From: Ruminococcus albus 7 = DSM 20455
GTDB lineage: Bacteria > Bacillota > Clostridia > Oscillospirales > Ruminococcaceae
Direction: 5' to 3'
Assembly (NCBI RefSeq): GCF_000179635.2
Contig: NC_014824.1
Coordinates: 300,001-332,000 of the forward strand
DNA: 32,000 nt
Shown piece by piece: positions 4,825 through 31,323 of this stretch. Within the stretch, counting starts at the first letter, position 1. Each line of letters opens with the position of its first letter. The notes under the pieces were generated by a model. The model worked only from the letters and a program-made list of their open reading frames with translations. It was not told where the DNA came from and ran no database searches. The position numbers were made by a program, and so were the translations under genes.

Positions 4825-4854
4825 AAACGAATTAAAAATTTTCCATCGAAAACC

Positions 4855-6294: not shown

Positions 6295-6439
6295 AATAGA
6301 CCAACTAATAGAACAACTGAATGATAGCACTGGTTGGTGTATCATTTGTTCTATTGGTTGGTTTATTGTTTTTGTTTCATTTCTATGACGTATTATATCT
6401 TCTTGTATTTTCAAATATAATCTATTCAGGAATATTCAT

Positions 6440-7461
6440 CATGGTTATCCCTTTAACACACCACAGATAATTTACAATGCTGTCCAAATAAACAGACCTC
6501 AAAACTCAGAAAATATAGTATAATAGTGACAGAAACCGAAGGGAGCTGTCGCTATGTCAAAAAGATTTCCGAAACCTGAGATCACACTTGATGGGATATA
6601 CTCAAAGTTCGCAGATGAAAGCTTTTGCAAGGATTTTCTGCTTGATATCCGCTTTGAAAAGGGTTTTGCCTGCCCGTTTTGCGGTGGCTCTGAGTACCGC
6701 AGGATAAGGTCACGCCATCTGCTGCGATGCAAGTTCTGTAAAGCAGATATATCCGCCACAAACGGAACTTTTATGCACAGAACACATATTCCGCTCAGAC
6801 TGTGGATAGTCACCGCATTCCTCATTATGAGCAACAAATGCAGCGTTTCTGCTGTTACGCTGATGAGGTCTTTGGGGGTGACCTACAAGACTGCATGGTA
6901 CATCCTTCATCGCATCAGAAAAGCTATGAAATGCCGTGAAGAACGCTATTTGCTTGACGGGATCGTTGAACTTGATGACACGTATCTCGGTGCTCCGACT
7001 CACGGTAAAAAGCGTGGCAGAGGAACTGAAAAAGTCAAGATGATAGTAGCTTTGTCAAAGAACGCAGCAGGAAATCCCGAGTACGTTAAAATGAGCGATG
7101 TGCCGAATTTAAAGGGTATAACTGTTGGTAGATTTGCCAGGGATAATATCCGCGCAGGCTCGAAGATCGAGAGTGATAATGCTCGAAGTTACAAGAAACC
7201 GTTGGCACAGAAATACTTCCATGTTTTTGAAACATATGATCCGACAAGCGGTCAGCTGAACTGGATGCATAAAGTTATATCAAACTTCAAAGCAATGATC
7301 ATGGGAACTTACCACGGAAACGAAAAGATCCACACAGCGTTATATGCTGCCGAATACTGCTACAAATTCAACCGTCGTAAGCTGGGAAACAGTGCGTATT
7401 TAAGGCTTTTGGCTGCTTTGGTGCAGTGATCTTACTTGTGGTGTGTTAAAGGGATAACCAT
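6440..7461 (+). mobile_element. IS1595-family insertion sequence with target-site duplication
   Basis: 24 bp terminal inverted repeats ATGGTTATCCCTTTAACACACCAC (6441-6464; reverse complement at 7438-7461). Flanked by direct repeat AATATTCAT (6431-6439 and 7462-7470). Confidence 0.85.
6554..7429 (+). CDS. IS1595-family (ISXO2-like) DDE transposase
   Basis: N-terminal zinc-ribbon CPFCGG...CKFC, then IPLRLWIVTAFLIMSNK and VELDDTYLG, as in IS1595 transposases. Confidence 0.8.
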   Translation: MSKRFPKPEITLDGIYSKFADESFCKDFLLDIRFEKGFACPFCGGSEYRRIRSRHLLRCKFCKADISATNGTFMHRTHIPLRLWIVTAFLIMSNKCSVSAVTLMRSLGVTYKTAWYILHRIRKAMKCREERYLLDGIVELDDTYLGAPTHGKKRGRGTEKVKMIVALSKNAAGNPEYVKMSDVPNLKGITVGRFARDNIRAGSKIESDNARSYKKPLAQKYFHVFETYDPTSGQLNWMHKVISNFKAMIMGTYHGNEKIHTALYAAEYCYKFNRRKLGNSAYLRLLAALVQ

Positions 7462-7469
7462 AATATTCA

Positions 7470-7500
7470 TTGATAGCTTGGAGGTCAGACAAGTTGTTGA
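7470..7500 (+). promoter_or_regulatory. conserved 5' leader hairpin (instance 4)
   Basis: ttgatagctTGGAGGTCAGACaagttgttga. Its promoter (TATAAT 6414-6419) is displaced about 1 kb by the IS1595 insertion. Confidence 0.6.
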
Positions 7501-7550
7501 TAATACTTTCAAAATACATATCGAAGAAGATAAAAAGGAGCTTAAGAATT

Positions 7551-8801: not shown

Positions 8802-9042
8802 TCTGAACGGAGACTACATTAGAGGTTATACGACAGCTCTAATCAATGTACTGAACTTCTTTGATGATCATTCTGAAGCTATGAAAGTGAATAAGATGTA
8901 CAATCAGAACTGTGTTCGTGCTGTTCTTAACTTTCTTCTGGAAAACAAAGAGGAAATGCGAGAAACAGGAACGATCGAGGATATAGTTGTTTCAAAAGAA
9001 AAGAATAAAGTGATCATCAAAAAAATCGGACGATATTTTTGA
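8794..9042 (+). CDS. hypothetical protein (82 aa)
   Basis: ATG at 8794 after aaAGGAGaataaag; 8 nt overlap with the upstream gene. Confidence 0.6.
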   Translation: MDNLNGDYIRGYTTALINVLNFFDDHSEAMKVNKMYNQNCVRAVLNFLLENKEEMRETGTIEDIVVSKEKNKVIIKKIGRYF

Positions 9043-9054
9043 AAGGAGCGTACA

Positions 9055-9285
9055 ATGTATAATAAGTACGAAAGTAGATGGAATCTGATACAGGAGATAC
9101 TTGAACTGCAAAAACAGTATCATAAACTGTATACATCAAGTAAGATCACAAAATCAGCTATATGCGAACTTGTTGTCCCTTTCAGAGATAAATACGAGCT
9201 ATCCGATGTTGAAGCTCTTAATATAGCTAAAGAGTTTTGTAGTATGGAACGGATCGTTCGTCTTGCTGAAAAGTTGTTTCCTTGA
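9055..9285 (+). CDS. hypothetical protein (76 aa)
   Basis: RBS gaAAGGAGcgtacaATG. Confidence 0.7.
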   Translation: MYNKYESRWNLIQEILELQKQYHKLYTSSKITKSAICELVVPFRDKYELSDVEALNIAKEFCSMERIVRLAEKLFP

Positions 9286-9303
9286 ATAAGACCTGTCTTT
9301 TAC

Positions 9304-9331
9304 AAACGTCTCTCTTCGTAGGGGCGTTTTT
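9304..9331 (+). terminator. intrinsic terminator, conserved family
   Basis: AAACGTCTCTCttcgtaGGGGCGTTTTT. Confidence 0.75.
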
Positions 9332-9602
9332 ATGCTGTGTCCATAAACTGTCATTTCATCTGGATGTTAAAGTATAACGATATTGAGATTATTAATTATA
9401 TAAATTGCATAATTTTAACAATTATAACTTTATGAACTACATAATTTGCAAAAAATTATCAGATACACACTAACTTGGAAATTTCGGTAAATTTCGAGTT
9501 AAGGTGAGGTAAAACGTATTTTTGATAGGTTGACTTTCTTTCTCGAATGTGTTAAATTAAAATTGTCGCGACAAACACTATTAATTAAGGAGTAATTTAA
9601 CC

Positions 9603-11552
9603 GTGAATATAAACATAAAGTCAAAAAGAATAATTGCAGGTGTAATGGCACTTTCAATCGTATCTTCTGGTGCAATTGCATCTGAGTCAAGCGTGATAGG
9701 CAGATTAATTTTATTAAATTCGCTCTCTGCAAGTGCCGGTACTGTTTATGGTGACTGGGAATATGAAGTAACCGGAGACCACACTGCAAAGCTAGTAAAG
9801 TATACCGGCAGCGATGCAGAAATTAGTATCCCTCAGGGCATTGACGGTCATTCGATAACAGAACTTGGTGAAAATCTGTTCAGTAATAATACTAATATCA
9901 AGTCTGTAAAGATCCCCAGAGGTATCCAGAGCATACCCGGTTACTGTTTCTCAAATGCTTCAAATCTGGAATCGGTGGTAATGCCTCTCGGCGTAACAAA
10001 AATCGAGCGCGGGGCTTTTATGAATGCAAAGAGCCTCACATCAATAGCGCTGCCTCTTTCTGTTGATACCATTGAAAGCTCTGCATTTACCGGCTCGGGA
10101 ATAACTTCCATTAACATGCGGGATGTTAATGAGTTCGGCAAAAGAATTTTTACAGACTGTAAAAACCTTAAAGATGTGGTGCTTCCCGATGGCATTACAA
10201 TAATTCCCGAAAGTACATTTGAAAACTGCATCGGCATAGAGTCCATCATCCTTCCTGATGACCTGATCACTATTGAAAAGAACGCTTTCAAAGGCTGCAC
10301 AAACCTTACAGAGATAAACGCACCCGATTCGTTGACGACTATAAAAAATTCTGCTTTCATGAATTGCTCAAAGCTTAAAAAAACTCCTTGTTCAGAATCA
10401 ACGGTTTCAATTGAATTCGCTGCATTTAGAAACTGCACAGGCCTTGAATCTGTATCATTCTCAAACTCACCTACTTCGATAGGATCGTATGCTTTTGCAG
10501 GCTGCGAAAAGCTTGAATATATCTCCATTCCCGACTCAGTAGAGAAGATTGATTCAGATGCTTTCAGCGAATGTAAAGGTATCAGGTCGATAGATCTTGA
10601 TGTTAATTCAGCTACTAAATTCGGCGGATACTGTTTCAAAGGCTGTTCTTCAGTAGAAAATATAAATGTTTCCGATTTTGACATTCTGGCAGGATTGTTC
10701 GACAAAAGAACATTTTCAGGCTGCAAAGAGCTACGTACAATAAACAATGAAAGTCCCGTTATTCTTAACGGCGATAACACTGAGCCTGAGTTTACAGAAA
10801 AGTACAGAAGTGTTATAATAGAGAATTTTGATGCCATTGACGACAGTGAGCTGGGTTTCTTCAATGACTACCTTGAAGCAGAAGTAAAGTACGTTGTATC
10901 CACAAATATAACCGATGATATGTCCGATATGGAGAAGATAAAAACTCTTCATGATTGGCTCTGTAACAAGGTATTCTATAAATATATCAAGAAAAACAGC
11001 AAGTATACTCCTGATACCAGCAATTATACTCAGGTGGATTCGTCTGCATTTATCAGAAATTCAACTGTATGCGCAGGCTATGCCAAAGCACTTACACTTT
11101 TGCTCAATGAATCTGGTGTAGAAGCATATCTTCTTGTAAATTTCAGCGAACATGCATGGTGTATGGTTAGAGTTGGAGACCATTATTTTCATCTTGATGC
11201 AACACATGATGATTCAGGCTCTGATCCAAACGGTACCATAGGTTATGATCACTTCCTTATCTCGGATACCGATGTAAAAAAATGCTCTTCAGGTCATTCG
11301 AGCTGGGCGATCGATGCGCCTACAAGCCGATATAAATACACTATTCCCGACGAAATCCCCAAATGCCTCTATTCGGTAGGAGATGTAAATAAGGATGGTG
11401 TCATCAACGATGATGATGCCGACCTTATCTGGTATTACTGCAACGGCGATATCGGCTCCATAGACCTTGTTCTCGCAGATACAAACTTCGACGGCAAAGT
11501 TGACTGGGATGATTACCTGGCAGCGCTCAAACGCAAATTGCCCCGAGGATAA
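9603..11552 (+). CDS. secreted leucine-rich-repeat (BspA-type) protein with transglutaminase-like cysteine peptidase core and C-terminal dockerin
   Basis: GTG start after tAAGGAGtaatttaacc; signal peptide. Repeated ...I.IP..V..I...AF..C..L... units. VCAGYAKALTLLL...HAWCMVRVGDHYFHLDATHDD (Cys-His-Asp). Dockerin GDVNKDGVINDDDADL / ADTNFDGKVDWDDY. Confidence 0.8.
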   Translation: MNINIKSKRIIAGVMALSIVSSGAIASESSVIGRLILLNSLSASAGTVYGDWEYEVTGDHTAKLVKYTGSDAEISIPQGIDGHSITELGENLFSNNTNIKSVKIPRGIQSIPGYCFSNASNLESVVMPLGVTKIERGAFMNAKSLTSIALPLSVDTIESSAFTGSGITSINMRDVNEFGKRIFTDCKNLKDVVLPDGITIIPESTFENCIGIESIILPDDLITIEKNAFKGCTNLTEINAPDSLTTIKNSAFMNCSKLKKTPCSESTVSIEFAAFRNCTGLESVSFSNSPTSIGSYAFAGCEKLEYISIPDSVEKIDSDAFSECKGIRSIDLDVNSATKFGGYCFKGCSSVENINVSDFDILAGLFDKRTFSGCKELRTINNESPVILNGDNTEPEFTEKYRSVIIENFDAIDDSELGFFNDYLEAEVKYVVSTNITDDMSDMEKIKTLHDWLCNKVFYKYIKKNSKYTPDTSNYTQVDSSAFIRNSTVCAGYAKALTLLLNESGVEAYLLVNFSEHAWCMVRVGDHYFHLDATHDDSGSDPNGTIGYDHFLISDTDVKKCSSGHSSWAIDAPTSRYKYTIPDEIPKCLYSVGDVNKDGVINDDDADLIWYYCNGDIGSIDLVLADTNFDGKVDWDDYLAALKRKLPRG

Positions 11553-11623
11553 GCTCAGTGATTATAAATATCATCTCAGACATATTTATATCCCATGATC
11601 AACAAACTAAATAATTAAAACTA

Positions 11624-11661
11624 AAGCATCTTCTGCGAAATATATCGCAGAGGATGTTTTT
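11624..11661 (+). terminator. intrinsic terminator
   Basis: AAGCATCTTCTGCGaaatatatCGCAGAGGATGTTTTT. Confidence 0.65.
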
Positions 11662-11662
11662 G

Positions 11663-11680
11663 TGTATCACGCGTGACACT
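11663..11680. repeat. palindrome family copy P2 (TGTATCACGCGTGACACT)
   Basis: Two mismatches to the consensus; directly after a terminator T-run. Confidence 0.7.
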
Positions 11681-11758
11681 AAGTATAGAACCATCCGGCA
11701 GGGAAGTAATGTTTTTATCGTTAGGATATTTCTCATATAATATCTATGTAGAGATTTA

Positions 11759-11790
11759 TTGATAGTTCGGAGATTTTTCGGCTATTGGTA
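11759..11790 (+). promoter_or_regulatory. leader hairpin, divergent instance 5
   Basis: ttGATAGttCGGAGatttttCGgCTATtggtaa, 17 nt after TATAAT (11736-11741). Confidence 0.4.
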
Positions 11791-11828
11791 AGTGTTTGCA
11801 ATATTATTAAAAACGGAGGAATAAAGAC

Positions 11829-12350
11829 ATGGGTTCAGTAATTGAATTAAACGAATGCCCTAAATGTAGTTTTGAGGAAATGAGCTGCGAATATTGGTAC
11901 AGAAGCGATGAGTACAGTGAGTTGTGTCCAAAATGCGGATATTTCAGAAAGAAATTCCTGAAAAGAGATGATAACAGGGAGCCTATAATGCTAACTGAAG
12001 ATATCAGGCGTGAAGATGTAGTCGTTCTTAAGAATAACAAATGGGTATCTCCGGAAAAAGATGAAGATCTTTCAGACTATCCTACAAGTAATTTTGCCGT
12101 AATAATGTCAGATGAAATAATGCGTTACCCTTCTTTTGCAAGAATGGATAAAGATGGAACTAAAGTGACGTATCCAGATTATATAACTGAAACCGGTGGA
12201 GGATGCGGAGCTGTTCATGTAAAATACTCCAACAATCTTGAACGGATAATATCGCTCGGGGAAAAAGGAGACTCTGAACGGATCAAAAAAGCAGTATATG
12301 AAGAGGATACAACAAAAGATATAGTATCTATAGAGATCACTTGCCCTTGA
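11829..12350 (+). CDS. hypothetical zinc-ribbon protein (173 aa)
   Basis: RBS aacGGAGGaataaagacATG; N-terminal CPKC...CPKCG. Confidence 0.7.
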   Translation: MGSVIELNECPKCSFEEMSCEYWYRSDEYSELCPKCGYFRKKFLKRDDNREPIMLTEDIRREDVVVLKNNKWVSPEKDEDLSDYPTSNFAVIMSDEIMRYPSFARMDKDGTKVTYPDYITETGGGCGAVHVKYSNNLERIISLGEKGDSERIKKAVYEEDTTKDIVSIEITCP

Positions 12351-14785: not shown

Positions 14786-15081
14786 GGTAAAAGAACAAAT
14801 AGCTTTATAGCAAAGATATACGGCTGTTTAGATGAATCGTTAGATGCACATACCACAATGGCATACATTAACCGTAAGGCTCTCGGAAACGCTGTGAAAG
14901 CGTTCCTGAGGGCTTTTTGGCGTTGAAACAGACAAATATGGAAAAAGGTTGCGCAACTGATGCGTTATGCAACCTTAATTATGGGAGCGAAATCTTATAT
15001 ATGATTATTGGGCTTTTAACTGTGATATGAAGCTTTTTTATTATTGCAAATTTTCACGTAAAATAAAATTGTAGATGTTAA

Positions 15082-15113
15082 TTGATAACATAGGAGACCA
15101 GACAGATTATTGA
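15082..15113 (+). promoter_or_regulatory. conserved 5' leader hairpin (instance 6)
   Basis: ttgataacaTAGGAGACCAGACagattattga. The stem changes G to A, converting a G-U wobble pair to A-U, so pairing is kept. Confidence 0.55.
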
Positions 15114-15156
15114 TAAATATTCTCAAATAACTATAAAACCAAAAGGAGTAATTGCT

Positions 15157-15414
15157 ATGAAAGGAATAATGCCGGATCATAAAGAATGGAGAAAGAAAAG
15201 ATACAAGATATTCAATGAAAAAATAAACTATTTTAAAGATCATCCCAAATATGAATGGCTGAGGAAATATGCAGATGATGCAATGAACGCAAATGAAGGG
15301 TTTGGTTATCTGATGATAAAAGGAGCAGACTTTATAGAAAGAATTGAAAAAATGCCTCTTGAATATATCAGAGACTGGCTCAACGGAAAAAATAAACTGG
15401 AATGGACAACATAA
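15157..15414 (+). CDS. hypothetical protein (85 aa)
   Basis: RBS aaAAGGAGtaattgctATG. Confidence 0.7.
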   Translation: MKGIMPDHKEWRKKRYKIFNEKINYFKDHPKYEWLRKYADDAMNANEGFGYLMIKGADFIERIEKMPLEYIRDWLNGKNKLEWTT

Positions 15415-15609: not shown

Positions 15610-15697
15610 AATAAAATGTTCCCTATAAAAACCTTTTTTGCAGGGACGTTTTCATCGATAAAGATTTTCTTCTATAATTATCTTAGATCTAAAAATT

Positions 15698-15728
15698 TTG
15701 ATAATCGGAGTCGGAATCAACAGATCAG
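15698..15728 (+). promoter_or_regulatory. leader hairpin instance 7, heading a decapitated cassette
   Basis: ttgataatCGGAGTCggaatcaACAGAtcag after TATAAT (15673-15678). Followed by AAAGGAG RBS and ATG CAC TAT TAA (15753-15764). Confidence 0.5.
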
Positions 15729-16072: not shown

Positions 16073-17434
16073 ATGACTAAAGTAGTAAAATTAGCGTTAA
16101 TAAGCAATGTAACCGATAAAGATGGAAACAAAGTTGAATACAATGAATTAAACAGATGCCTATGGGATCTTCAAAAAGAAACCAGGGACCTGAAAAATGC
16201 TGTAGTAAGAGAATGCTGGGAATGGTACGGATTCACCAACGATTATTATAAACTTAACGAAGAATATCCGAATGAAAGAGATTATCTGAAAAAGGCAAAG
16301 TCTGACGGAACGATTAAAGATTATGCTTTGGATGGATTTATATATGCTAAATACAGCAAAAAATACAATCTTCATTCAGGAAACTATTCACAAACATTAA
16401 GAGACGCCTGCGGAAGCTTTAAAAATAATCTCAAAGAAATATTAAGAGGAGATAAGAGCATTTTAAGTTATAGAGCCGATCAGCCTCTGGATATCAAGAA
16501 GACCTGTATCGGACTGGAATACGATAAGGACACAAACACTTATTATGTAACTCTTGTTCTGCTAAACAAAAATGGCGTCAAGCATTATAATATCAGTGAT
16601 TTCAGATTTAAGATAACCGTAAAGGATAATTCAACAAGAACGATCCTTGAACGTTGTTTTGATGGAGTATACGGCATAAGCGCAAGTAAGCTTATCTGGA
16701 ACAGAAAGAAGAGTCAGTGGTTTTTAAATCTCTGCTATTCATTCGATAAAGTAGAGGTAAAGGAACTTGACAAGAAAAAGATACTGGGAGTAAATCTCGG
16801 TGTTTACTACCCTTTATACGCTTCAATATCCGGAGAAAAGGATAGACTAGCGATCTCTGGTGATGAAATAATCGAATTCAGGAAACGAATAGAGGCTAGA
16901 AGGACAGCTCTGAAGAAACAGGCTGCTGTGTGCGGAGATGGAAGGATAGGTCATGGTTATAAAACCAGGATGAAACCATTACAGAATGTCTCTGATAAGA
17001 TAGCAAATTTCAGAGATACCTTTAATCACAAAGCAAGTAAAAAGCTAATTGATTTTGCAATCAAAAATGATTGTGGGATCATCCAGCTCGAAAATCTTAA
17101 AGGAGTAACAAAAAATTCAGAAGGATTCCTCAAAAACTGGTCTTTTTATGATCTTCAGAGTAAGATCGAAAATAAGGCGAAAGAAAGAGGGATAAAAGTT
17201 GTTTATATTGAACCTGCTTACACAAGCCTGAGATGCTCAAAATGCGGATGTATACACAAAGATAATCATCCGACCAGAGAGCAGTTTATCTGTCAAGAGT
17301 GTGGGTATAGGGTTCTGCATGATTACAATGCCAGCCAGAACATTGCTGTCAAGGATATAGACAAGATAATAAAAGCTGAACTTGAAAAGACGGAACCGGA
17401 AAAGAAAACAGAGGAAGAAAAGCCCGAGAAGTAA
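16073..17434 (+). CDS. miniature Cas12f/TnpB-like RuvC protein (453 aa) with Asn at the RuvC-I catalytic position
   Basis: RBS tAAGGAGtaataaaaATG. RuvC-I context KKILGVNLGVYYP (N241, AAT 16793-16795, where the family has GxDxG). RuvC-II IIQLENLKG (E340). Zinc finger CSKCG...CQECG. RuvC-III HDYNASQNIA (D417). GDGRIGHGYKTRMKPL resembles the Gly/Arg/Lys-rich linker I recall from Cas12f. Confidence 0.8.
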   Translation: MTKVVKLALISNVTDKDGNKVEYNELNRCLWDLQKETRDLKNAVVRECWEWYGFTNDYYKLNEEYPNERDYLKKAKSDGTIKDYALDGFIYAKYSKKYNLHSGNYSQTLRDACGSFKNNLKEILRGDKSILSYRADQPLDIKKTCIGLEYDKDTNTYYVTLVLLNKNGVKHYNISDFRFKITVKDNSTRTILERCFDGVYGISASKLIWNRKKSQWFLNLCYSFDKVEVKELDKKKILGVNLGVYYPLYASISGEKDRLAISGDEIIEFRKRIEARRTALKKQAAVCGDGRIGHGYKTRMKPLQNVSDKIANFRDTFNHKASKKLIDFAIKNDCGIIQLENLKGVTKNSEGFLKNWSFYDLQSKIENKAKERGIKVVYIEPAYTSLRCSKCGCIHKDNHPTREQFICQECGYRVLHDYNASQNIAVKDIDKIIKAELEKTEPEKKTEEEKPEK

Positions 17435-17659: not shown

Positions 17660-17713
17660 AGCGAAAGATATTATCGATTTCACTTTTCTTGTATAATAAC
17701 AACATAGATGTTA

Positions 17714-17745
17714 TTGATAACTGGCGAAGATAAATAAGTTATCGA
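17714..17745 (+). promoter_or_regulatory. leader hairpin instance 8
   Basis: ttGATAACTggcgaagataaataAGTTATCga. Perfect 7 bp stem; loop is a variant (GGCGAAGATAAA). Confidence 0.5.
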
Positions 17746-17780
17746 AGACACTAAATGATTATTATATGGAGGAATTCAAA

Positions 17781-18581
17781 ATGAAAGAATTTAAAAATGC
17801 AAACAATGGAACATCTGAGAAAAACAACATAAACGGCACTATCATTTCAGATATAATTGTAACTATCTTTTCAAGCAAGAAGGAGAATAGTTCGTTAAAT
17901 CAAGAAATGATAAAAAGGAGAGCGGAGATAATTGAAGATATCGGTATTCACAGTAAGCCTTCAGGAGGAGATAACTTCTGGCTTTTCTATGAAAATTATA
18001 TTTTTTCAAAGAAAGAACACGACAAAATAAAGGCTATAGTAGATAAGTACTCATCTGAACATTATTTTAATGAACTGGTGCATATAGATATGAACTGTCT
18101 TTATGATTATACCGAAAGTGGCACTATCACTCTGAGTACAAGAGTCAGAATATCTGATCTGTGCTATGATATGGATACCTGGTGTGCAGGAAGTCTTGAA
18201 AACGTTCTTCCGGGAACATATAACTGTTTTGTTCAGAAAACAGGAGAGGGAAGAGTTGCAGGGATCAAAATAGTTCACGAAGAATACGATCCTGAAGAAT
18301 ATGAACCTGATGAACTTCAGGATATTGACGTAGGAGTGGATTCGGGTGAATGTGGAATTTACGATGAAGAATATTTCGCAAAAAACTGTAAGGACCAAGA
18401 CTGGTATGAATCCACATACGTGCTGAGAGATGGAATGCCTCTAGATGATAAAGCATTTATAAGCAGTTCTGGATACGGCGATGGAAGTTACGAATGCTTT
18501 GTTGCAAGAAATACCGAAGGAAAGATCGTAGCTATAAAGATATTATTCATTGACTTTGAGAACGATGAGGAGGAAGAATGA
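17781..18581 (+). CDS. hypothetical protein, DUF4241-like C-terminal half (tentative)
   Basis: ATG at 17781 after GGAGGaattcaaa. Contains DVGVDSGECGIYDEEYF and SSSGYGDGSYECFV, motifs I associate with DUF4241. Confidence 0.6.
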   Translation: MKEFKNANNGTSEKNNINGTIISDIIVTIFSSKKENSSLNQEMIKRRAEIIEDIGIHSKPSGGDNFWLFYENYIFSKKEHDKIKAIVDKYSSEHYFNELVHIDMNCLYDYTESGTITLSTRVRISDLCYDMDTWCAGSLENVLPGTYNCFVQKTGEGRVAGIKIVHEEYDPEEYEPDELQDIDVGVDSGECGIYDEEYFAKNCKDQDWYESTYVLRDGMPLDDKAFISSSGYGDGSYECFVARNTEGKIVAIKILFIDFENDEEEE

Positions 18582-19333: not shown

Positions 19334-19438
19334 TTATAACTGCTGCAACGAGGAAAAATAATTAAAGGTATTAGAAATGCAGCGACAGGGCCTTTTTGTC
19401 GTATTAAGTTTTCGTATATAATATAGATAGAATGCATT

Positions 19439-19470
19439 ATCGATAATCTGGGGTCAGACAGGTTATAGAT
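19439..19470 (+). promoter_or_regulatory. conserved 5' leader hairpin (instance 9)
   Basis: atcgataatCTGGGGTCAGACAggttatagat after TATAAT (19417-19422). Confidence 0.55.
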
Positions 19471-19522
19471 GCTAAAATTATAGATATAAACGTAAAAATA
19501 GCAGAAAAAAAAGGGTGATATT

Positions 19523-19729
19523 ATGATATACTATTGGGTAGCAGTAAACCGCAATTGCAAATTGGCAGGTGGAGTAAGAAACATAATTAAATCGGAAACG
19601 AACAAAGAAGAAGTACTAAAGAAAGATTATTATGAGGACTATAATAAATATCCAGGTGATCACTTCGTGCTTTTTAATACACTTAGGAAAGCACAGGAAT
19701 ATGCAGATAAGCTATCAGAAGAAAGCTAA
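19523..19729 (+). CDS. hypothetical protein (68 aa)
   Basis: ORF track; purine-rich aaaaGGGTGatattATG. Confidence 0.6.
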   Translation: MIYYWVAVNRNCKLAGGVRNIIKSETNKEEVLKKDYYEDYNKYPGDHFVLFNTLRKAQEYADKLSEES

Positions 19730-21018: not shown

Positions 21019-21049
21019 AAACGTCTCTCCTCGGAGGGGCGTTTCTTTT
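21019..21049 (+). terminator. intrinsic terminator, conserved family
   Basis: AAACGTCTCTCctcgGAGGGGCGTTTCTTTT. Confidence 0.75.
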
Positions 21050-21129
21050 ATACTATGGAATATGCATTGGCAGGAAAAAAACGATTATATAATCTGTTGT
21101 TTTCTGCTATAATCAATAAAGAAACATCA

Positions 21130-21160
21130 TTGATAGCCTGGAGGTCAGACGGGTTGTTTA
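21130..21160 (+). promoter_or_regulatory. conserved 5' leader hairpin (instance 10)
   Basis: ttgatagccTGGAGGTCAGACgggttgttta, 16 nt after TATAAT (21108-21113). Stem ATAGCC/GGTTGT differs compensatorily from ATAGCTT/AAGTTGT at 7470. Confidence 0.6.
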
Positions 21161-21208
21161 CTATTTTGAATTGTCAAATACAATATATAGAAATCGGAGG
21201 AATTACAA

Positions 21209-21727
21209 ATGTCAACTAAAATATATAACGGATTTCGTATGAGGGAATTATCCTCAAATGAACTTATTGTTTTCATCAATGAATTAAGAGAAAAGATCTC
21301 ACCTACAGTCCATAACGCTTTTTGCATTGGTATTATACAAATAGCATCAAAAATAATTACTAAGTGCATAGAATACAACTTTGACTTTGAAGGAACTCCC
21401 GAAAAGGCGGAAAATGTAGAAAAATTCCTGAGAAGTTACTATCTTGCAAGTCTGACAACGACAACAATGGCTCAGAGAGCTCTTGGTAAGATGGATAAGG
21501 TGATCGATGATCTGGAATGGCCTTTTATCGGTGGCGTTATAAACATGGCTATTAATATTTACAAAAATGATACTATGAACGAAAACAAACAGTCTTGCTA
21601 CAATGACGTCAGAAGTAGTATTGCGCTACTTCAGGGCAGCAAAGAAAAGACTTTATTCATGACGTTCGGAAATGTTTTCACAGACTGTATGTACGAACTT
21701 ATAAAAAAGAACGATGAGCTCGTGTGA
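21209..21727 (+). pseudogene. 5' fragment of a hypothetical gene split by the TnpB element
   Basis: RBS atcGGAGGaattacaaATG. The frame stops inside the IS end hairpin. The frame resumes at about 23622 and runs to 24176. Confidence 0.6.
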
Positions 21728-21831
21728 AGCCTCACACGACTAAAGTCGCGTGCTTCCTATAGTATCCTTACGGACACGCCCACTTTAGGCAGGCGGACTA
21801 CGTTTCTACCATACAGCCTGAACTCAGAAAA

Positions 21832-23157
21832 TTATGCTGTTTGAGCGATAAATTCCGCATTCAGGTTAACTAAGGTAGAGAACGTGCAGGTGCTTCTCTT
21901 ACTGCATTGAGGTACTTTAGCCTCAATGAGCAACCTTGAATTCTCATCCAAGGATTTTAATATTTCACGTATGAAGTATCTTGCCCCTATATTATACGAA
22001 GCAGATAGATCGCAGTTGTAGGTCTTGCCATTTTGAAATTTGCATAGCTCATAGGTATTGAAACCACCGAATTTACCACGAAGTACAAAACCACTGCCAT
22101 CGTATGCAAGGCGTGACGTATTCCATGCACAGATATGGCTTACTCTCATACCTAGTCTGTGAGCTTTATTCGTTACAATAGACTGAACTTCCTGACTGCG
22201 CCACAGCTTGAGCTTCTGCTTTTTAGAACCGCGGACCTTACCGTTCTTGTCTAAATGCTCAAATACAATAACATCTGCATTATAAAGAACGGCTATATCT
22301 ACGATGCAGGCAGCAGTTTTAGTGGCAATGTCGTGATTGATTCCTTTGGCTTTTGCCCAAAGCCTTGGTGTTTTATAGTTACCATGCTGCTGAGCTTTTT
22401 TTATACGGTTAATGCTATGCATCAGATGGTCTGTTTCTTTGGTAAGCTTACAAAAATGCCTTCCAAGAATAGTGCCATCTGAACGCATTACGGAAACCGT
22501 AGCTGCGGTGTTGATCCCAAGGTCTACAGCAACAATGGTCTGCTCATACACAGATATATCTGCCAGTTTGACCTTTTCCTCAAACGGAAAGTCCAAAAAC
22601 CACTTCTTGCCTCGTTTTTGAAGTGTTGGAGCGCATTCCTTGCGAAACCTGCAATATCTGTATATATAATCCATATCAGACTTTTTAAGGTTTATAGTTA
22701 TCCAGTCCCATGTATTACGGATATAGACTTTGATCTGGGCAGTATAATCACCGGTCTGATTGTACATTACTGTACGATACATAGACGGGAATGAATAACC
22801 TGCTTTTGGATACGATGGTTCTCTGCCTACAGAATCTTTGATCCAGTTATCGAAATTGCTTTTGTAAGATGATACCTTGCCTATAGCCTCGTTAATAGCA
22901 CCACGGCGCAGATAGCTTGGCATCTTATAGAATTTGGCATCAAAATCATAAATTGGATCGGGATTATCTTTTGTAGCATGGATCAGTGTTTCAATATATG
23001 TGAGTCTACTCACCCCTTTGAATGTAACAATGTTATCCCAATGATCCAGACAAACGCTGATAAGGTAATCTACAGCATGTCTGTATTCGATAACGGTATC
23101 TTTGAAAATGTTGTTGTAATGCTTGATCTTAACGCTGTATGTCGTATATATCTGCAT
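21832..23157 (-). CDS. tnpB: TnpB-like RNA-guided endonuclease (441 aa), RuvC triad intact
   Basis: RBS AAGGAGGG upstream. RuvC-I IVAVDLGINTAA, RuvC-II VIVFEHLD, RuvC-III YNCDLSASYNIGARY. AWNTSRLAYDGSG replaces the usual CxxC zinc finger. Confidence 0.8.
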   Translation of the reverse strand: MQIYTTYSVKIKHYNNIFKDTVIEYRHAVDYLISVCLDHWDNIVTFKGVSRLTYIETLIHATKDNPDPIYDFDAKFYKMPSYLRRGAINEAIGKVSSYKSNFDNWIKDSVGREPSYPKAGYSFPSMYRTVMYNQTGDYTAQIKVYIRNTWDWITINLKKSDMDYIYRYCRFRKECAPTLQKRGKKWFLDFPFEEKVKLADISVYEQTIVAVDLGINTAATVSVMRSDGTILGRHFCKLTKETDHLMHSINRIKKAQQHGNYKTPRLWAKAKGINHDIATKTAACIVDIAVLYNADVIVFEHLDKNGKVRGSKKQKLKLWRSQEVQSIVTNKAHRLGMRVSHICAWNTSRLAYDGSGFVLRGKFGGFNTYELCKFQNGKTYNCDLSASYNIGARYFIREILKSLDENSRLLIEAKVPQCSKRSTCTFSTLVNLNAEFIAQTA

Positions 23158-23332
23158 ACTGCAGACTCCCTCCTTATACTTGTTTTTTTGAGAATTAATG
23201 TAATCTGTTACATGTTTATGTTTAAGACTTCTGTCGCTTACAGTTGCTACAAAATACGATGGATTCCATATATATTATAGCAGATTTATTTAAGAATAAA
23301 AAATTATATATACTTAAAAGTTGTTCTGTGTT

Positions 23333-23350
23333 TGTGTCACGCGTGACACA
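23333..23350. repeat. palindrome family copy P6 (perfect; part of a ~33 bp extended palindrome) inside the TnpB element
   Basis: TTCTGTgTTTGTGTCACGCGTGACACAAACAGAA. Confidence 0.85.
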
Positions 23351-23621
23351 AACAGAATTCAAATTTTCTTTTTATGAGGTTTAAGATGCAGAAAGACAGC
23401 TAATCTTACTCACTTAGATGTCTTTCACTTAAGAATTATAGTATTTGACATTCTTAAGTGAGGCTTACAGTTTACAAGACGAAGTATATGATCAGGACTT
23501 CTGTATTTGGTAGTTCTTACGATATGGTATTACAATGAATATACATACCCTCGACCATGCACAACAGAATGTCTAGAAATGCCGCCTAACTCATGACTAA
23601 AGTCACGAGCGTGCAGCGGCA

Positions 23622-24176
23622 AAATCGTCAAAGTACGAAATTGAAGAGTACGGCTATTGGAACAATACAGATGAGCCAGACGGAATCACAAATGAGGAAT
23701 GGAAGAATTGTGGAGATGACTGGGACGCAGCATTACCCGGTTTAGGCGTCCCTTCAAGATGCGGTCTGTGTTCTTCCGATCTTATCGATCCTGATGTTCT
23801 ATTTTCCGAAATAAAAATGGCTGAGGATGGAAGAATGAGGAAAATTATAAATGATTTTTCACTATTAAAATACGTTCATGCGTTAGTTTGCGATAAAACT
23901 ATAAGCCACTTTGTAAAGATGGACAGTGAGTATGATGAAAAACTGTCATCGACTTATGCTTTAGTGGTAAAATACAGAGAAAAAATAGAAAAAGACGATC
24001 CTCAGATGAAGGATTATGCGGATAAGCTTGAAAACGAGATGATAGAACAGATATCGGACCGTTCCATAGAAGAAATACTATCTGGAAGCATACTCGAACT
24101 ACTACCGAAATATACAAGCTATAAAAAAATGCGGAATGAAGGAGGAAATGATTATGATAATCAAGTATCATCATAA
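23622..24176 (+). pseudogene. 3' fragment of the gene split by the TnpB element
   Basis: The frame is open upstream of the ORF-track ATG (23817), back to about 23622: ...KSSKYEIEEYGYWNNTDEPDGITNEEWKNCGDDWDAALPG... Confidence 0.55.
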
Positions 24177-24518: not shown

Positions 24519-25592
24519 ATGTTTAACGCAAAAAAAATAGTTTCACTGGTTATGTCTGCGATTATTAGCAGTACAATGGTAACAGCGATACCCGCGAATG
24601 CGCAAGTTTACAAAAACGAATGCGCAGGTTTTAAGGCGGTAAAAGATTTAAAACTAGATGATGATGGAAATATATATGGTATGAAGTTCGATTCAATGCA
24701 GGGAATTGCTGGTGATTCTTCCTATATATATGTTGCAAAAAATCACAAAATATCCGAATCAGAACAATATGCGGTTATCTTTCGTTTAAATCCAAATAAC
24801 AAAAATGAAGCCCCAACATTGATGTCGTTCGATACAAAAAAGAATAATGAAAAAAATGTAGCCGGTGATCTCAGTCATGCAAACGATATGTTCTTACTCA
24901 AGGAAAACGGTATCAGATATCTTTATGTTAGCACTGGAGAAGGTCAGATTATTAAACTTCAGATCGATGATTCAAAGAAAAAACTGAAAAAAGTTAAGAG
25001 GATAACGGTAAAGAAAAATGGTGATACAAGATTGAAATTTTCCGGACTTTCGGGTTTTGAAGATGAACTTAATAATAAGTCTAGATATAAAATTATTTTA
25101 AAGGATAAAAACGAGATATATACAGCAACGATCAACAAGAATAACACGAACGAGAGTATTCCGGCATATAAAAAGTTTGACCTGAAAACAAAAGTTCAGT
25201 TGCCCGGTAAGGATAAAAATGGCAAGAGCACAAATGTTCTCCATGATCTTTCTGAGAAAAAATATGCGAATCAGGGAATATCTTACTATAATGGAGATCT
25301 TTATGTAACATATTCAATGAATTCGGATGATAAAAGTGTTCCGCATAATAAAAGTTTTATCATTATATATAAGAATGTATACAATAAATTAAACAATTCA
25401 GGAACTTCCACAATAGCAAATCCATATGGTGAAGCCAAATTCTATTTTGAAAGCGGTTCTTACCCTGATCTTTTTGAAATTGAAGGTTGTGCTATTGTAA
25501 ATAATACGGTTTTTTTTAATACCAATAGAAGAAAAACACCTTCAGATGCAAATTATGATGCCGTTCTTTATCTATCTAATTACAGACCATAA
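24519..25592 (+). CDS. secreted hypothetical protein (357 aa)
   Basis: Promoter TTGACG...TATAAT upstream. Signal peptide MFNAKKIVSLVMSAIISSTMVTAIPANA. Confidence 0.75.
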   Translation: MFNAKKIVSLVMSAIISSTMVTAIPANAQVYKNECAGFKAVKDLKLDDDGNIYGMKFDSMQGIAGDSSYIYVAKNHKISESEQYAVIFRLNPNNKNEAPTLMSFDTKKNNEKNVAGDLSHANDMFLLKENGIRYLYVSTGEGQIIKLQIDDSKKKLKKVKRITVKKNGDTRLKFSGLSGFEDELNNKSRYKIILKDKNEIYTATINKNNTNESIPAYKKFDLKTKVQLPGKDKNGKSTNVLHDLSEKKYANQGISYYNGDLYVTYSMNSDDKSVPHNKSFIIIYKNVYNKLNNSGTSTIANPYGEAKFYFESGSYPDLFEIEGCAIVNNTVFFNTNRRKTPSDANYDAVLYLSNYRP

Positions 25593-25600
25593 TTAATACC

Positions 25601-25627
25601 AACGTCTCTCTACGGAGAGGCGTTTTT
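25601..25627 (+). terminator. intrinsic terminator, conserved family
   Basis: AACGTCTCTCtacgGAGAGGCGTTTTT. Confidence 0.75.
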
Positions 25628-25707
25628 ATGTGTGTTACAATAGTTCAAATAAATCTTTTGCTTTTATCTTCATCAATTTTATCATACAATAAATTTGTAG
25701 ATGATTA

Positions 25708-25736
25708 TTGATGATATGGAGGTAAAAAATATTCGA
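25708..25736 (+). promoter_or_regulatory. leader motif, weak instance 11
   Basis: ttgatgataTGGAGGTAaaaaatattcga. Keeps TAGATG-ATTATTGAT and TGGAGGT, but the stem is poor. Confidence 0.35.
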
Positions 25737-25813
25737 GCGTTAGTAATATCCTCAATATTTCATTTATATTAATATTTCTATTGACATGACTAATGAAAAG
25801 GGAGGAAATTATA

Positions 25814-26122
25814 ATGTTTGATGTAAAAGTGATCACAAATGCTATTCATGAAGCACTTTTTTACGAAATGACATCTTTTCGCAGTAATGGATTTACTTAT
25901 GAGATAATTTGCTGGAAACCAAATCCGGTCGAAATTCGGAATTCAAGAAGAATTTGCAGAATATATAGATTGAATCCTGCGGAAAAAGAACGAAATCGAA
26001 TTACTTATTTAGAAATAAATGCAGATAACACATCAAAAGTGATCTGGAATGATTGCTTAAGTGAAGAAGATAAAAAAACTTTCACTGACGCTTTTAAAAA
26101 CAACAATATTATGATCGCTTAA
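25814..26122 (+). CDS. hypothetical protein (102 aa)
   Basis: ATG at 25814 after aaaGGGAGGaaattata. Confidence 0.65.
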   Translation: MFDVKVITNAIHEALFYEMTSFRSNGFTYEIICWKPNPVEIRNSRRICRIYRLNPAEKERNRITYLEINADNTSKVIWNDCLSEEDKKTFTDAFKNNNIMIA

Positions 26123-26167
26123 CGCTCGACTTTTCAGCACCTCACGTAAAGAGGTGCTTTTTTTTGT

Positions 26168-26915
26168 TGTAACCGAAAACCCCCGGCTATGCCGGGGGTT
26201 CTAAAAAGCTTTAGCTATGAGTAGAAAAATAAAACCTCCTGTGATAAACTAAGAATAGGTCTGGCAACCGAAACTTAGAATAACAAGGAGGTATCGTCAA
26301 TGACAAGAGACGATATAAATAGTTTAGCACATTCCAAGTGGAATTGCAAGTACCATGTAGTATTTGCCCCGAAATATCGAAGAATGGTGATTTATAATAA
26401 AATCAAAGTGGATATCGGAAAGATACTAAGAAAGTTGTGTGATCAAAAAGGAGTTAAAATAATCGAAGCAGAGGCGTGTCCTGATCATATACATATGCTG
26501 TTGTCTATTCCACCCAAATACAGTGTAGCAGAGATAATGGGATATTTGAAAGGCAAGAGTAGTTTGATGATATTTGACAGACACGCAAATCTGAAATATA
26601 AGTATGGCAACAGGCACTTCTGGTGCAGAGGATACTATGTTGATACAGTAGGAAAGAACAAGAAAAAGATAGCAGAGTACATCAGGAATCAGTTGCAGGA
26701 AGATATAGTGTGCGACCAGATCAGCCTGTTTGAGACAGTAGACCCATTTACAGGAGAAAAATACAAGAAAAAGTAGAAAACGAACACAAAATACCCCTTG
26801 AGGGGTTGCACGGGAATGAAATGCGGTTGACAGACCTTTCCCGACCCCTTAAGGGGTAGTGTCAGTATCATGCCCTTATAGGGCTAGTGCAAACCACCCG
26901 TTTAACGGGTGGTTT
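26168..26915 (+). mobile_element. IS200-type element (tnpA only); boundaries approximate
   Basis: Left hairpin AACCCCCGGCtatGCCGGGGGTT (about 26180-26202). Several right-end hairpins: CCCCTTgaGGGG, CCCCTTAAGGGG, GCCCTtatAGGGC, ACCACCCGtttaaCGGGTGGT (about 26795-26915). Confidence 0.75.
26300..26776 (+). CDS. tnpA: IS200/IS605-family Y1 (HUH) transposase TnpA
   Basis: HUH motif PDHIHMLL; catalytic Tyr context RGYYVDTVG; size 158 aa. Confidence 0.9.
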   Translation: MTRDDINSLAHSKWNCKYHVVFAPKYRRMVIYNKIKVDIGKILRKLCDQKGVKIIEAEACPDHIHMLLSIPPKYSVAEIMGYLKGKSSLMIFDRHANLKYKYGNRHFWCRGYYVDTVGKNKKKIAEYIRNQLQEDIVCDQISLFETVDPFTGEKYKKK

Positions 26916-29896: not shown

Positions 29897-29978
29897 ATTA
29901 CAAATCAATGAAAGATTTCATCCGGAATGAAATTATCTTGATAAGTTTTCTTGTATAATTATTTTAGGTTTACGCTTA

Positions 29979-30010
29979 TTGATAAAATGGAGTCGCAGAC
30001 CGAATATTAT
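29979..30010 (+). promoter_or_regulatory. conserved 5' leader hairpin (instance 12)
   Basis: ttgataaaaTGGAGTCGCAGACCGAATATTat after TATAAT (29954-29959). The loop matches instance 2 (GGAGTC...AGACCGAATATT). Confidence 0.5.
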
Positions 30011-30027: not shown

Positions 30028-30690
30028 ATGTTAGACGTAAAATCGATCAAAGAAAAATATCTCCCGGGAACCAGAGTGAAGCTTATTCACATGGATGATC
30101 CATATCATCCTGTTCCGGATAATACCTGCGGTACTGTCACTGAAGTTGATGACGTAGGTACTGTTCACGCAAAATTTGACAACGGAAGCGGTCTGGGGAT
30201 ATGTCTTGAAGTAGATAAGGTAGAGATAATTGAAATACCATATGTAAGAAAGCTTTATAGAACAGGTAAAGATTCGATCTCCTGCTATCCCATCAATGAA
30301 GATTCTGTAGAAATTAAACCAAGCAGCGTATTTGATGATGAATTTGATATCATTGAAAATGACGAAGAAAAAGATTACGGATACACAGAAATTAGCTTTG
30401 TAGAAGGGAAGTATCGTGCAGATTGCTGGAAACACAGGCTTCCGCTCAAAGAATTTAGCACATACGAAGAAGCGGTAAATGAGCTGAGAGAATGCTGTAG
30501 TTATTGCAGCGGTGATGAAAATACAATAGAGGAAGCTATTAACGATCATCTCATTTGGTGGTGTTCTCACGTTTTTGTTGAGGATATTAAAATTAATAAT
30601 ATTCCTGTTTTTGATTTGTCTGATGGTGAAATCAAAAATCTGCTTGATCGTGGTTTTTCAGGTAGCAGGATCTTTATTAGGAGGATATAA
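30028..30690 (+). CDS. DUF4314-like domain protein (220 aa)
   Basis: RBS acGGAGGaataaaaATG. The N-terminal GTRVKLIHMDDPYHPVPDNTCGTVTEVDDVGTVHAKFDNGSGLGI matches my recollection of the DUF4314 signature common on Firmicutes mobile elements. Confidence 0.65.
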   Translation: MLDVKSIKEKYLPGTRVKLIHMDDPYHPVPDNTCGTVTEVDDVGTVHAKFDNGSGLGICLEVDKVEIIEIPYVRKLYRTGKDSISCYPINEDSVEIKPSSVFDDEFDIIENDEEKDYGYTEISFVEGKYRADCWKHRLPLKEFSTYEEAVNELRECCSYCSGDENTIEEAINDHLIWWCSHVFVEDIKINNIPVFDLSDGEIKNLLDRGFSGSRIFIRRI

Positions 30691-31047: not shown

Positions 31048-31323
31048 ATGAATAATTCTATCACAAGACTGAAAGCATCAGCAAAAACAACTCCTAAGAA
31101 CCTTGCATGGGCAATCGTCTCTGCACTCAGCGGTAACAGTGAAAAAGTTGAGATAACAGCAGTTGGAGCCGCAGCAACAAACCAGGTAGTGAAGGCTTTA
31201 GCAATTGCTCGCGGAATGGCTATTACCAAGAATAGGGACGTTATCAGTAAAACGTCTTTTGCAACGCTGGAAATCGATTCTAAGCAGGTTACGGGTATAA
31301 TGTTTGATTGTAGCTTCCAGTAA
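31048..31323 (+). CDS. spoVS: stage V sporulation protein S-like
   Basis: LKASAKTTPKNLAWAIVSAL...EITAVGAAATNQVVKALAIARGM is collinear with SpoVS (VSAKS.P..VAGA...IQAIGAGA.NQAVKA.AIARG). Confidence 0.8.
   Translation: MNNSITRLKASAKTTPKNLAWAIVSALSGNSEKVEITAVGAAATNQVVKALAIARGMAITKNRDVISKTSFATLEIDSKQVTGIMFDCSFQ

Follow-up and report, generated by a model that had tools for sequence, protein, structure and literature searches.

The window analysed here comprises 32,000 nucleotides of Ruminococcus albus 7 = DSM 20455 (contig NC_014824.1, positions 300,001 to 332,000 of the forward strand; all coordinates below are those of the window) and is the accessory region of an integrative Ruminococcus element carrying a serine recombinase. 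A promoter followed by a leader hairpin recurs in it upstream of unrelated gene cassettes. In the focal copy, all parts of which lie on the + strand, the terminator of the preceding cassette, AACGTCTCTCCTCGGAGGGGCGTTTCTTTT, was recognized in the sequence and by a terminator scan at 21020-21049. The promoter at 21100-21113 consists of TTTTCTGC and the -10 hexamer TATAAT (21108-21113), without a good -35 element. After a spacer of 16 nt between TATAAT and the 5' arm, the hairpin extends from 21130 to 21160, with the 5' arm TTGATAGCCTG, the loop GAGGTCAGA, the 3' arm CGGGTTGTTTA and four G-U pairs; within it TTGATAGCC occupies 21130-21138, GGAG 21140-21143 and GGGTTGTTTA 21151-21160. The predicted fold of the hairpin RNA has an energy of -9.7 kcal/mol, and 21120-21167 matches the covariance model described below with an E value of 4e-10. 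The true ribosome binding site, GGAGG at 21196-21200, serves an open reading frame (ORF) that runs from an ATG at 21209 to 21727 and encodes 172 amino acids of no known family.

The hairpin is embedded in a larger conserved unit of about 130-150 nt, in which an intrinsic terminator is followed by a T-run/ATTG, by the promoter consensus AATTTTCYTnTATAAT and by the leader. The terminator of this module is a GC-rich stem, often with GAGGGGCGTTTTTTTATTG, and is separated from AATTTTCYTn by about 7 nt. Similar terminator sequences precede other modules, and every cassette ends in a terminator; terminator-like sites are enriched (24, compared with 9.2 ± 3.3 in shuffled sequences). A terminator stem-loop followed directly by a promoter is repeated between variable ORFs, and this junction fronts most accessory cassettes of the element.

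A preliminary description of this DNA, made from the sequence alone, had listed twelve such hairpins, and all twelve positions carry the sequence it described. It had overlooked the copy at 570-650, with which the window holds 13, as well as the larger terminator-promoter-leader junction and an outer helix that begins with the first nucleotides of the transcript. The layout of a promoter followed by a hairpin holds for the listed copies except at 7470, where an IS1595 insertion (6440-7461) separates the promoter from its hairpin. The -10 hexamer sits 16-19 nt upstream of the hairpin. Common to the copies is TTGATAA, followed after 3-5 nt by GGAG; in 12 of the 13 window copies the distance between the first T of TATAAT and this GGAG is 31-35 nt. 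With GGAG as the anchor, conservation is good on the 5' side (TTGATAA) and far weaker on the 3' side. The hairpin is therefore a real recurrent feature, but the uniform loop TGGAG(G)TC-n-AGAC that had been attributed to it is not: AGAC is absent from the copies at 11759, 15698, 17714 and 25708, and the copy at 17714 has GGCG. The exact 12-mer loop TGGAGGTCAGAC occurs only three times, at 1785, 7479 and 21139. A covariance model built on the core form, an 11-bp stem with the 9-nt loop GAGGUCAGA, finds five strong copies in the window (1766, 7460, 15072, 19430 and 21120, all with E <= 5.8e-8), whereas the copies at 11759, 15698, 17714, 25708 and 29979 score only E values of 0.5-3 (with matches at 17705, 11749, 25698 and 29969). 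The copies outside the five strong ones have no more in common than the 5' arm TTGATAA, a GGAG about 33 nt from the start of TATAAT and a complementary 3' arm. The uniform loop is thus restricted to one subfamily. A supposedly related sequence at 4331-4365 gave no match to the model.

The same cassettes are present in the NCBI assembly GCA_000621285.1 and in several sequencing-run assemblies, and one source attributes a methylase homologue to "Ruminococcus sp.". A metagenome scan with the pattern TATAAT-N14-20-TTGATA-N4-5-GGAGRYCAGAC yielded 17 loci, in which the promoter consensus recurs and the promoter context is identical in every match. About 35 distinct leaders were collected from module-type promoters in these loci, and further relatives added more; related contigs and loci that were compared with the window carry L-numbered names below. 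The leader, which the preliminary description could not match to a named RNA family, corresponds to no Rfam family: Rfam 15 at gathering thresholds gave no match in the window, and at E <= 5 three matches, all at 25482-26287 and none at a leader. No match was found when the window or the module was compared with phages and plasmids by megablast/blastn, or the DUF4314 protein by tblastn. Two scans of viral contigs returned chance matches only, as did a scan of a genome collection with a loose pattern (15 specified bases), in which the matches had no promoter context. Islands with 50-62%-identical methylases (L159-L165) lack the module and are other mobile or anti-defence-like islands, e.g. with AcrVA2-like and ParE genes. 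Hence the motif is restricted to a narrow lineage. One of these islands, L163, carries a 58%-identical orphan methylase among AcrVA2-like, NERD, DUF4942 and ParE-like genes; it is anti-defence-like and without the leader module. Taken together, this is a genuine and previously uncatalogued leader motif of one lineage, and part of a composite junction module.

The leaders can form two helices. The inner helix is the stem that contains TTGATAA, and in the outer helix the first nucleotides after the presumed transcription start pair with a downstream complement. The sequence of the outer helix varies while its pairing is kept (TTAGATC/GATCTAA, GATCTGA/TCAGATC, GTAGTTA/TAACTAC, ATAGA/TCTAT and TTCAAGACCTT/AAGGTCTGAA), and wholly different inner stems are still paired (TTGATGATC/GATCGTTGA and TTGAGCGAAA/TTTCGCTCAA). 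The stem pairs quoted in the preliminary description for the copies at 2280, 17716, 7473 versus 21133, and 15082 are correct as read. Since covariation within the core subfamily was not significant, as detailed below, an alignment-free swap test was applied to 39 non-redundant leaders (<80% identical), in which the 5' half of each leader was combined with its own 3' half or with those of other leaders. The duplex energy was -10.4 kcal/mol for the leaders' own halves and -7.3 kcal/mol for swapped halves (permutation p <= 2e-5). For a first set of 32 leaders, the same test gave p = 8e-4 for the inner helix alone and p = 1e-4 for the outer helix alone. Specificity of pairing is significant only across the whole diverse family with the outer helix included.

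Furthermore, the structure is favoured on the coding-sense strand. The minimum free energy of the sense strand is better than that of the reverse complement by 3.4 kcal/mol (26 of 32 leaders, p = 3e-4), and the energy of the own duplex by 2.6 kcal/mol (p = 2e-4). This bears out the earlier proposal that the hairpin forms in + strand RNA with the help of G-U pairs, which make up 81 of the 570 pairs predicted for the 32 leaders. Compared with dinucleotide shuffles the mean z score is -1.57 (p ~1e-6), with values below -2 in only 9 of 32 leaders; as single copies, those at 2280, 5011, 7470, 11759, 17714 and 19439 are clearly structured. If the transcription start is set 7 nt after the -10 hexamer, a hairpin enclosing GGAG is predicted in 35 of 39 leaders, and at most two 5' nucleotides would stay unpaired in 25 of 39.

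GGAG is present in 30 of 32 leaders that had been chosen without reference to it, and is extended to GGAGG(U) in the core subfamily. The probability of being unpaired is 0.65 for its GGA and 0.41 for the rest of the leader (p = 5e-5). In 21 of the 32 leaders no ATG, GTG or TTG lies 4-12 nt after GGAG; the others have TTG or ATG at differing spacings, opening reading frames of differing lengths. GGAG is thus an orphan Shine-Dalgarno-like sequence of the kind found in Bacillus stabilisers, and a leader peptide or upstream ORF is ruled out, as neither a start codon nor a peptide is conserved behind it. The true ribosome binding site is not overlapped by the hairpin, which by eye ends 10-40 nt before it. 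With the 16S rRNA tail of Bacillus and Clostridia as the reference, the loop is complementary to the rRNA 3' end over GGAGGU and no further. A second -10-like element that would cause a sigma-dependent pause at TTGATAAY was also rejected, as the T at position 6 of the hexamer is not conserved.

Stabilisers at the 5' end of mRNAs are known in Bacillus from ermC, aprE and cryIIIA STAB-SD (PMC3997798), and in plasmid p576 inverted repeats in the 5' untranslated region (UTR) upstream of ardC double expression (PMC6294495). The leaders described here combine the features of the Bacillus stabilisers in one hairpin. Together with the precedent of p576, this leads us to favour the reading that the leader acts in cis as an enhancer of expression and as a stabiliser at the 5' end, as is known from Bacillus; to this function we assign a probability of roughly 0.5. 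Transcription would start about 7 nt after TATAAT, and the first nucleotides of the RNA, often UAGAU or UAGUU, would pair downstream to form the outer helix, while the UUGAUAA arm and a G-U-rich 3' arm would form the inner helix. GGAG(G), about 21 nt from the start of the transcript and with no start codon after it, would then be presented at the apex. The buried 5' end may deny access to RNases that depend on a free 5' end, and the orphan Shine-Dalgarno sequence may hold a 30S subunit near the 5' end, so that unrelated cassettes would gain uniformly high expression. The union of both features in one hairpin would also explain why GGAG are the only invariant bases and why they are exposed. Of the roles considered in the preliminary description, a ribosome-related one thus fits best, given an invariant and exposed GGAG with no start codon after it, whereas positive evidence was lacking for antitermination and for the binding of a repressor.

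The aprE 5' stem-loop, cryIIIA STAB-SD and the polypurine sequences of ermC and SP82 share with the leaders a stem-loop at the extreme 5' end (at the presumed start in our case), a strong Shine-Dalgarno-like sequence without a following start codon upstream of the real ribosome binding site, and a low-GC Gram-positive host (PMC3997798). In contrast to these stabilisers, a single hairpin unites both features here, its apical loop carrying the Shine-Dalgarno-like sequence; the 5' arm is conserved in sequence, and the structure is repeated at least 13 times before unrelated genes of one mobile element; its stabilising activity is putative. The anatomy of the leaders, their recurrence, the pairing on the sense strand, the exposed GGAG and the existence of chimeric leaders are observed directly, and the anatomy and the sense-strand hairpin are more secure than the function.

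Several points weigh against a stabiliser. The transcription start, the stabilising effect and the binding of ribosomes are what we infer from the sequence. Within the core subfamily (23 distinct sequences) 85.7% of the cells in the alignment are paired compared with 85.1% after shuffling, and its covariation score was reached by 50 of 500 shuffles and is not significant; the preliminary description, which had quoted covarying stems, had itself named this outcome as one that would refute its proposal. The swap test by itself cannot distinguish pairing in RNA from an inverted repeat in DNA, a distinction that is made by the strand asymmetry. About one third of the leaders fold no better than shuffled sequences, including the focal copy (z -0.5); as single copies this applies to 1776, 15082, 15698, 21130 and 29979. 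Module-type promoters without a hairpin are found in the window at 2987 and 5089, in front of signal-peptide proteins, and at 30973, in front of the SpoVS/Alba-like gene. Finally, conservation is strong both for the 5' arm TTGATAA and for its distance to GGAG although a stabiliser needs no particular sequence, which suggests that the arm is recognized by a factor, or else reflects shared descent and homogenisation. A further hairpin-less module promoter precedes the serine recombinase in related loci (L166/L167 10337). The hairpin may be reserved for cytoplasmic accessory genes, the numbers being small.

Since a stabiliser does not account for a 5' arm that is conserved in sequence and fixed in spacing, we retain as a tentative, rather unlikely alternative that the leader is the operator of a regulon, at which an RNA-binding protein or a DNA repressor switches all cassettes together. 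In the first version, a protein would recognize the UUGAUAA helix and the GGA in the loop; this could be a host protein of the CsrA type that bridges the loop GGA and the GGAGG of the ribosome binding site, or a protein of the element such as the SpoVS/Alba-like one. In the second, a repressor would bind the DNA at ATTGATAA, at about +10, and at its repeat at about +37. The outcome could be a transient burst of expression after transfer, as with Reg576 in p576 or ArdK at the CUP repeats of pKM101. Conservation of TTGATAA and of its distances to GGAG and to the -10 hexamer goes beyond the needs of pairing, and a direct repeat ATTGATAA...TTATTGATAA is seen in several copies. The SpoVS/Alba-like gene, which is 100% conserved, has the module promoter without the hairpin. 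CsrA binds a GGA in a hairpin loop together with a GGA in the Shine-Dalgarno sequence 10-63 nt apart. The leaders show this geometry, with one GGA in the apical loop and another 26-56 nt further downstream, within the ribosome binding site; unlike CsrA/RsmA sites, they do not consistently fit the A(N)GGA flank preference. A tblastn search detected no CsrA homologue in about 434 kb of related element sequence, and in Pfam scans of about 40 ORFs no helix-turn-helix or ribbon-helix-helix protein was preceded by the module. In many copies the downstream TTGATAA repeat is replaced by true complements (TTTCGCTCAA, AGTTATCGA or ATCAA), which argues that pairing was selected rather than a second DNA site. 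Upstream of the -10 hexamer there is no consistent GATAA site.

Promoter-plus-operator regions repeated before establishment operons provide a precedent for such a regulon (PMC6294495, PMC8708921). The EGeRS2/Reg576 regulon of Bacillus p576, like EGeRS1 of pLS20 and CUP/ArdK of the IncN plasmid pKM101, resembles the junction in that a conserved stretch of about 140 bp, including a sigma-A promoter, recurs in front of several operons; these comprise small genes without assigned function, methylase genes and anti-restriction genes on a conjugative element, and inverted repeats in the 5' UTR raise expression (PMC6294495, PMC8708921). The p576 system differs in its Reg576 operator, and there is no sequence similarity. 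A repressor gene was not found here, no helix-turn-helix or ribbon-helix-helix domain being present among the approximately 40 ORFs scanned, and the Reg576 operator TTATCCCnnTTATCCC is absent, with five matches at up to three mismatches compared with 3.8 expected and none of them at a module. Furthermore, a single promoter of p576 has the UTR repeats, whereas the hairpin recurs from module to module here.

Alternatively, the junction could be a mere composite repeat of terminator and promoter that is spread and homogenised by recombination, as in the PeSL of T4-type phages, with a hairpin devoid of function; this we consider unlikely. Pairing would then arise since TTGATAA is nearly self-complementary when G-U pairs are allowed, and a direct TTGATAA repeat does pair automatically via two G-U pairs. 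A repeat of this type would be consistent with the lack of significant covariation in the core subfamily, with the poor folding of several copies, with chimeric leaders and breakpoints inside the module, and with the PeSL precedent (PMC2839356, PMC4122927). However, the outer helix does not include TTGATAA, yet the 5' ends pair specifically with their own partner (p = 1e-4), and wholly different inner stems stay paired. Between the leaders L133+6205 and L151-10756 three changes in the 5' arm of the outer helix all keep pairing with an identical 3' arm. The GGAG is moreover invariant and preferentially unpaired.

Signs of a possible exchange of cassettes at the junction are seen in orthologous cassettes from related loci. 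In two of these the 3' halves of the leaders are 98% identical and the 5' halves only 69-73%. One pair is the copy at window 15059 and its counterpart in L144 (3' half 98%, 5' half 69% identical), where the window copy has lost the pairing of the outer helix; the second is L151-10756 and L133+6205, in which it is preserved. The points of crossover differ between the two chimeric leaders, which fits homologous better than site-specific exchange. Compared with related contigs, cassette content changes at 17684 (promoter), 15081 (start of the hairpin) and 11789 (end of the hairpin), and other breakpoints lie at the ends of ORFs (651, 1368 and 1687); the sample is small, with a handful of junctions. 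The conserved 5' half of the junction may serve as portable homology for the exchange of cassettes and promoters. In T4-type phages the PeSL terminator/promoter motifs mediate modular shuffling (PMC2839356, PMC4122927); as here, small terminator-plus-promoter units flank variable genes without assigned function, and differences between close relatives begin in or at the units, which in the present element holds for some of the breakpoints. PeSL differ in that they belong to T4-like phage genomes with another host and promoter consensus, and a leader hairpin has not been described for them. The present element is not of the T4 type: it has no phage match, and the host element carries serine recombinase, NikA-like, DUF3945/Toprim and YodL genes.

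A more specific proposal, to which we give quite a low probability, is that the hairpin with its invariant GGAG loop and conserved UUGAUAA arm is the RNA operator of an element-wide post-transcriptional regulon, in which an RNA-binding protein encoded by the element would time accessory or establishment genes after transfer; the SpoVS/Alba-like protein would be the most conspicuous candidate, and the short terminated transcript of 5011-5077, which has the same apex, could act as a decoy. Still less probable is that the hairpin is a nut/put-like or LoaP-type antitermination signal for read-through of the cassette terminators. Its promoter-proximal position at a fixed distance, its conserved hairpin loop and the terminator at the end of every cassette would suit such a role, but each cassette has its own promoter, so that read-through is not needed; no boxA-like partner was seen, the ORFs scanned contain no gene for N, Q, a NusG paralogue or a ConAn-like protein, there is no Rfam match, and the copy at 5011 is itself followed by a T-run.

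An action of the structure in single-stranded DNA, either as an Frpo/ssi promoter or priming site on the transferred strand or as an attC-like hairpin for cassette capture, is highly improbable, since the coding-sense strand folds better than its complement and the two chimeric leaders have different crossovers (in the loop and upstream of TTGATAA), even though the element looks conjugative with co-oriented genes as in plasmid leading regions (PMC11541004), hairpins lie at cassette boundaries and, in comparison with L151, one insertion stops where a hairpin has its 3' end (window 11789). Frpo/ssi are likewise structured elements that recur on a transferable element, ahead of early or accessory genes of one orientation (PMC11541004), but their promoter hexamers lie inside the stem, which is not so here, and the present structure is favoured on the mRNA-sense strand. 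An Frpo-like promoter in single-stranded DNA was rejected as the -10 hexamer lies outside the hairpin and as whole modules folded as single-stranded DNA form no long stem consistently (z -2.3 and +1.0 for two modules). Integron attC sites were rejected as the 3' arms GTTGTTG, GTTATCG or GTTATAG misfit GTTRRRY and as no tyrosine recombinase or integron integrase is encoded in the window.

The remaining module copies of the window all lie on the + strand. The one missed earlier (570-650) has TATAAT at 570-575, TTGGATACTTGGAG and GGAG at 603-606, upstream of an ORF at 651-1361. It is followed by a copy at 1753-1831 with the -10 hexamer at 1753-1758, an inner helix with the exact loop at 1776-1806, GGAG at 1786 and an ORF at 1862-2200 (model E 3e-10). 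The copy at 2261-2334 has the divergent, entirely Watson-Crick-paired stem TTGAGCGAAA/TTTCGCTCAA; its hairpin (2273-2334, GGAG at 2294) folds with -19.6 kcal/mol (z -5.3) in front of an ORF at 2360-2896. An atypical unit is located at 4995-5077, with the -10 hexamer at 4995-5000, a 58-nt hairpin at 5011-5068 with the apex UUGGAG, and the T-run that had already been pointed out. This hairpin has no TTGATA arm and folds with -24.2 kcal/mol (z -4.4). A second module-type promoter follows directly at 5089-5101 and serves the ORF of a dockerin protein at 5152-6264. The arrangement at 4995-5101 is kept in L151 and L158 with two substitutions. The first of its two units is predicted to give a transcript of about 70 nt, which could be a small RNA or a terminated leader.

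The module at 6416-7505 is split by the IS1595-family insertion, whose transposase is encoded at 6554-7429, between the -10 hexamer (6416-6421) and a hairpin with the exact loop (7464-7505, model E 1e-11); the operon behind it begins at 7551. In L151, L153 and L158 this module is uninterrupted. The copy at 11736-11800 (-10 hexamer 11736-11741) has a long hairpin of 21 pairs at 11747-11800 with GGAG at 11769 (z -4.7) before an ORF at 11829-12350. The chimeric leader of the window is part of the copy at 15059-15136, with the -10 hexamer TAAAAT at 15059-15064, an inner helix at 15082-15113, GGAG at 15093 and an ORF at 15157-15414; it matches the model with E 2e-10 but pairs poorly (z +0.2). At 15673-15726 a -10 hexamer (15673-15678) precedes a hairpin at 15686-15726 with the outer helix GATCT/AGATC, the inner helix TTGAT/ATCAA and GGAG at 15707; about 350 nt of non-coding sequence separate it from a TnpB ORF at 16073-17434. 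The copy at 17692-17753 (-10 hexamer 17692-17697, hairpin 17705-17753, z -4.6) has GGCG at its apex (17723) and lies upstream of a DUF4241 ORF at 17766-18581. Three further copies are those at 19417-19472 (-10 hexamer 19417-19422, hairpin 19434-19472 with the apex GGGGTCAGAC, ORF 19523-19729, model E 1e-8), at 25685-25755 (-10 hexamer TACAAT 25685-25690, hairpin 25695-25755, GGAG 25718, ORF end 26122) and at 29954-30001 (-10 hexamer 29954-29959, a weak hairpin at 29967-30001 with GGAGTCGCAGACC and GGAG at 29989, DUF4314 ORF 30028-30690).

The window has a GC content of about 35%, with almost every gene on the + strand, and the strand of the modules is that of the genes throughout each locus. 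The genes behind the leaders encode an orphan N6/N4 methylase, a DarG-like macrodomain protein, and DUF4241, DUF4314 and SUKH-1 proteins, and many leaders precede small acidic proteins of no known family. The SpoVS/Alba-like gene (31048-31323, 91 amino acids) is 100% identical in four related contigs (L166-L169) and lies beside a large serine recombinase in three of them; in these surroundings NikA-like, DUF3945/Toprim, DUF1848 and YodL genes are also present, and in related loci modules precede several genes around the recombinase. These neighbours and the modules in front of them are the reason for reading the window as the accessory region of the element, which is probably conjugative; an establishment or anti-defence role of this region is probable, and its make-up resembles that of plasmid leading regions (PMC11541004, PMC8708921). 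The element may end at the SpoVS/Alba-like gene, for which a trans-acting role is a speculative possibility.

Insertion sequences that are absent elsewhere comprise, besides the IS1595 copy, a TnpB element at 21729-23626 and an IS200. The former, a TnpB-only insertion with an ORF on the minus strand (21832-23157), is missing from both L142 and L143. A match to STnc490 below the Rfam threshold (53.3 bits compared with a gathering threshold of 56, E 7e-8) was obtained at 26178-26287, immediately before the IS200 transposase gene (26300-26776); L143 lacks the IS200 region. A block of about 3 kb with three ORFs (8802-11788), one encoding a 649-amino-acid LRR_5/transglutaminase/dockerin protein, is absent from L151 and L158, where the 11829 cassette follows directly on the ORF ending at 8801 without a module of its own. 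Furthermore, a CRISPR-like mini-array lies at 4303-4831. Its five repeats of about 32 nt (GATGCAATCTGTACAGGCAGGTAAATTGCGAG) are 65-69 nt apart, the last of them being degenerate, and a TTATAAT promoter and 190 nt of non-coding sequence (4331-4520) come before them. The array has no cas genes next to it, and the window contains two TnpB/Cas12f1-like ORFs. Alignments by blastn with L151, L153 and L158 break inside the array, and by eye its spacers (4558-4790) show no resemblance to the leader.

Overall, the motif is best filed as a variant of familiar kinds, namely of 5' stabiliser leaders and of standardised upstream regions of accessory genes on mobile elements, and it establishes no new principle by itself unless a dedicated trans-acting factor is found. 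A defined motif is now available for Rfam-style searches. Ruminococcus joins the short list of systems in which the upstream regions of accessory genes are standardised, that is PeSL in T4-type phages, EGeRS in pLS20 and p576, and CUP in IncN plasmids. If the stabiliser reading is true, terminator, strong promoter, 5'-protecting leader and ribosome binding site would together provide Clostridia with a natural expression cassette of compact form. Should the leader act in this way, the junction would help to explain the gain and loss of cassettes in gene arrays, and a mobile element of the gut and rumen would thereby express dozens of unrelated accessory genes at uniform levels.

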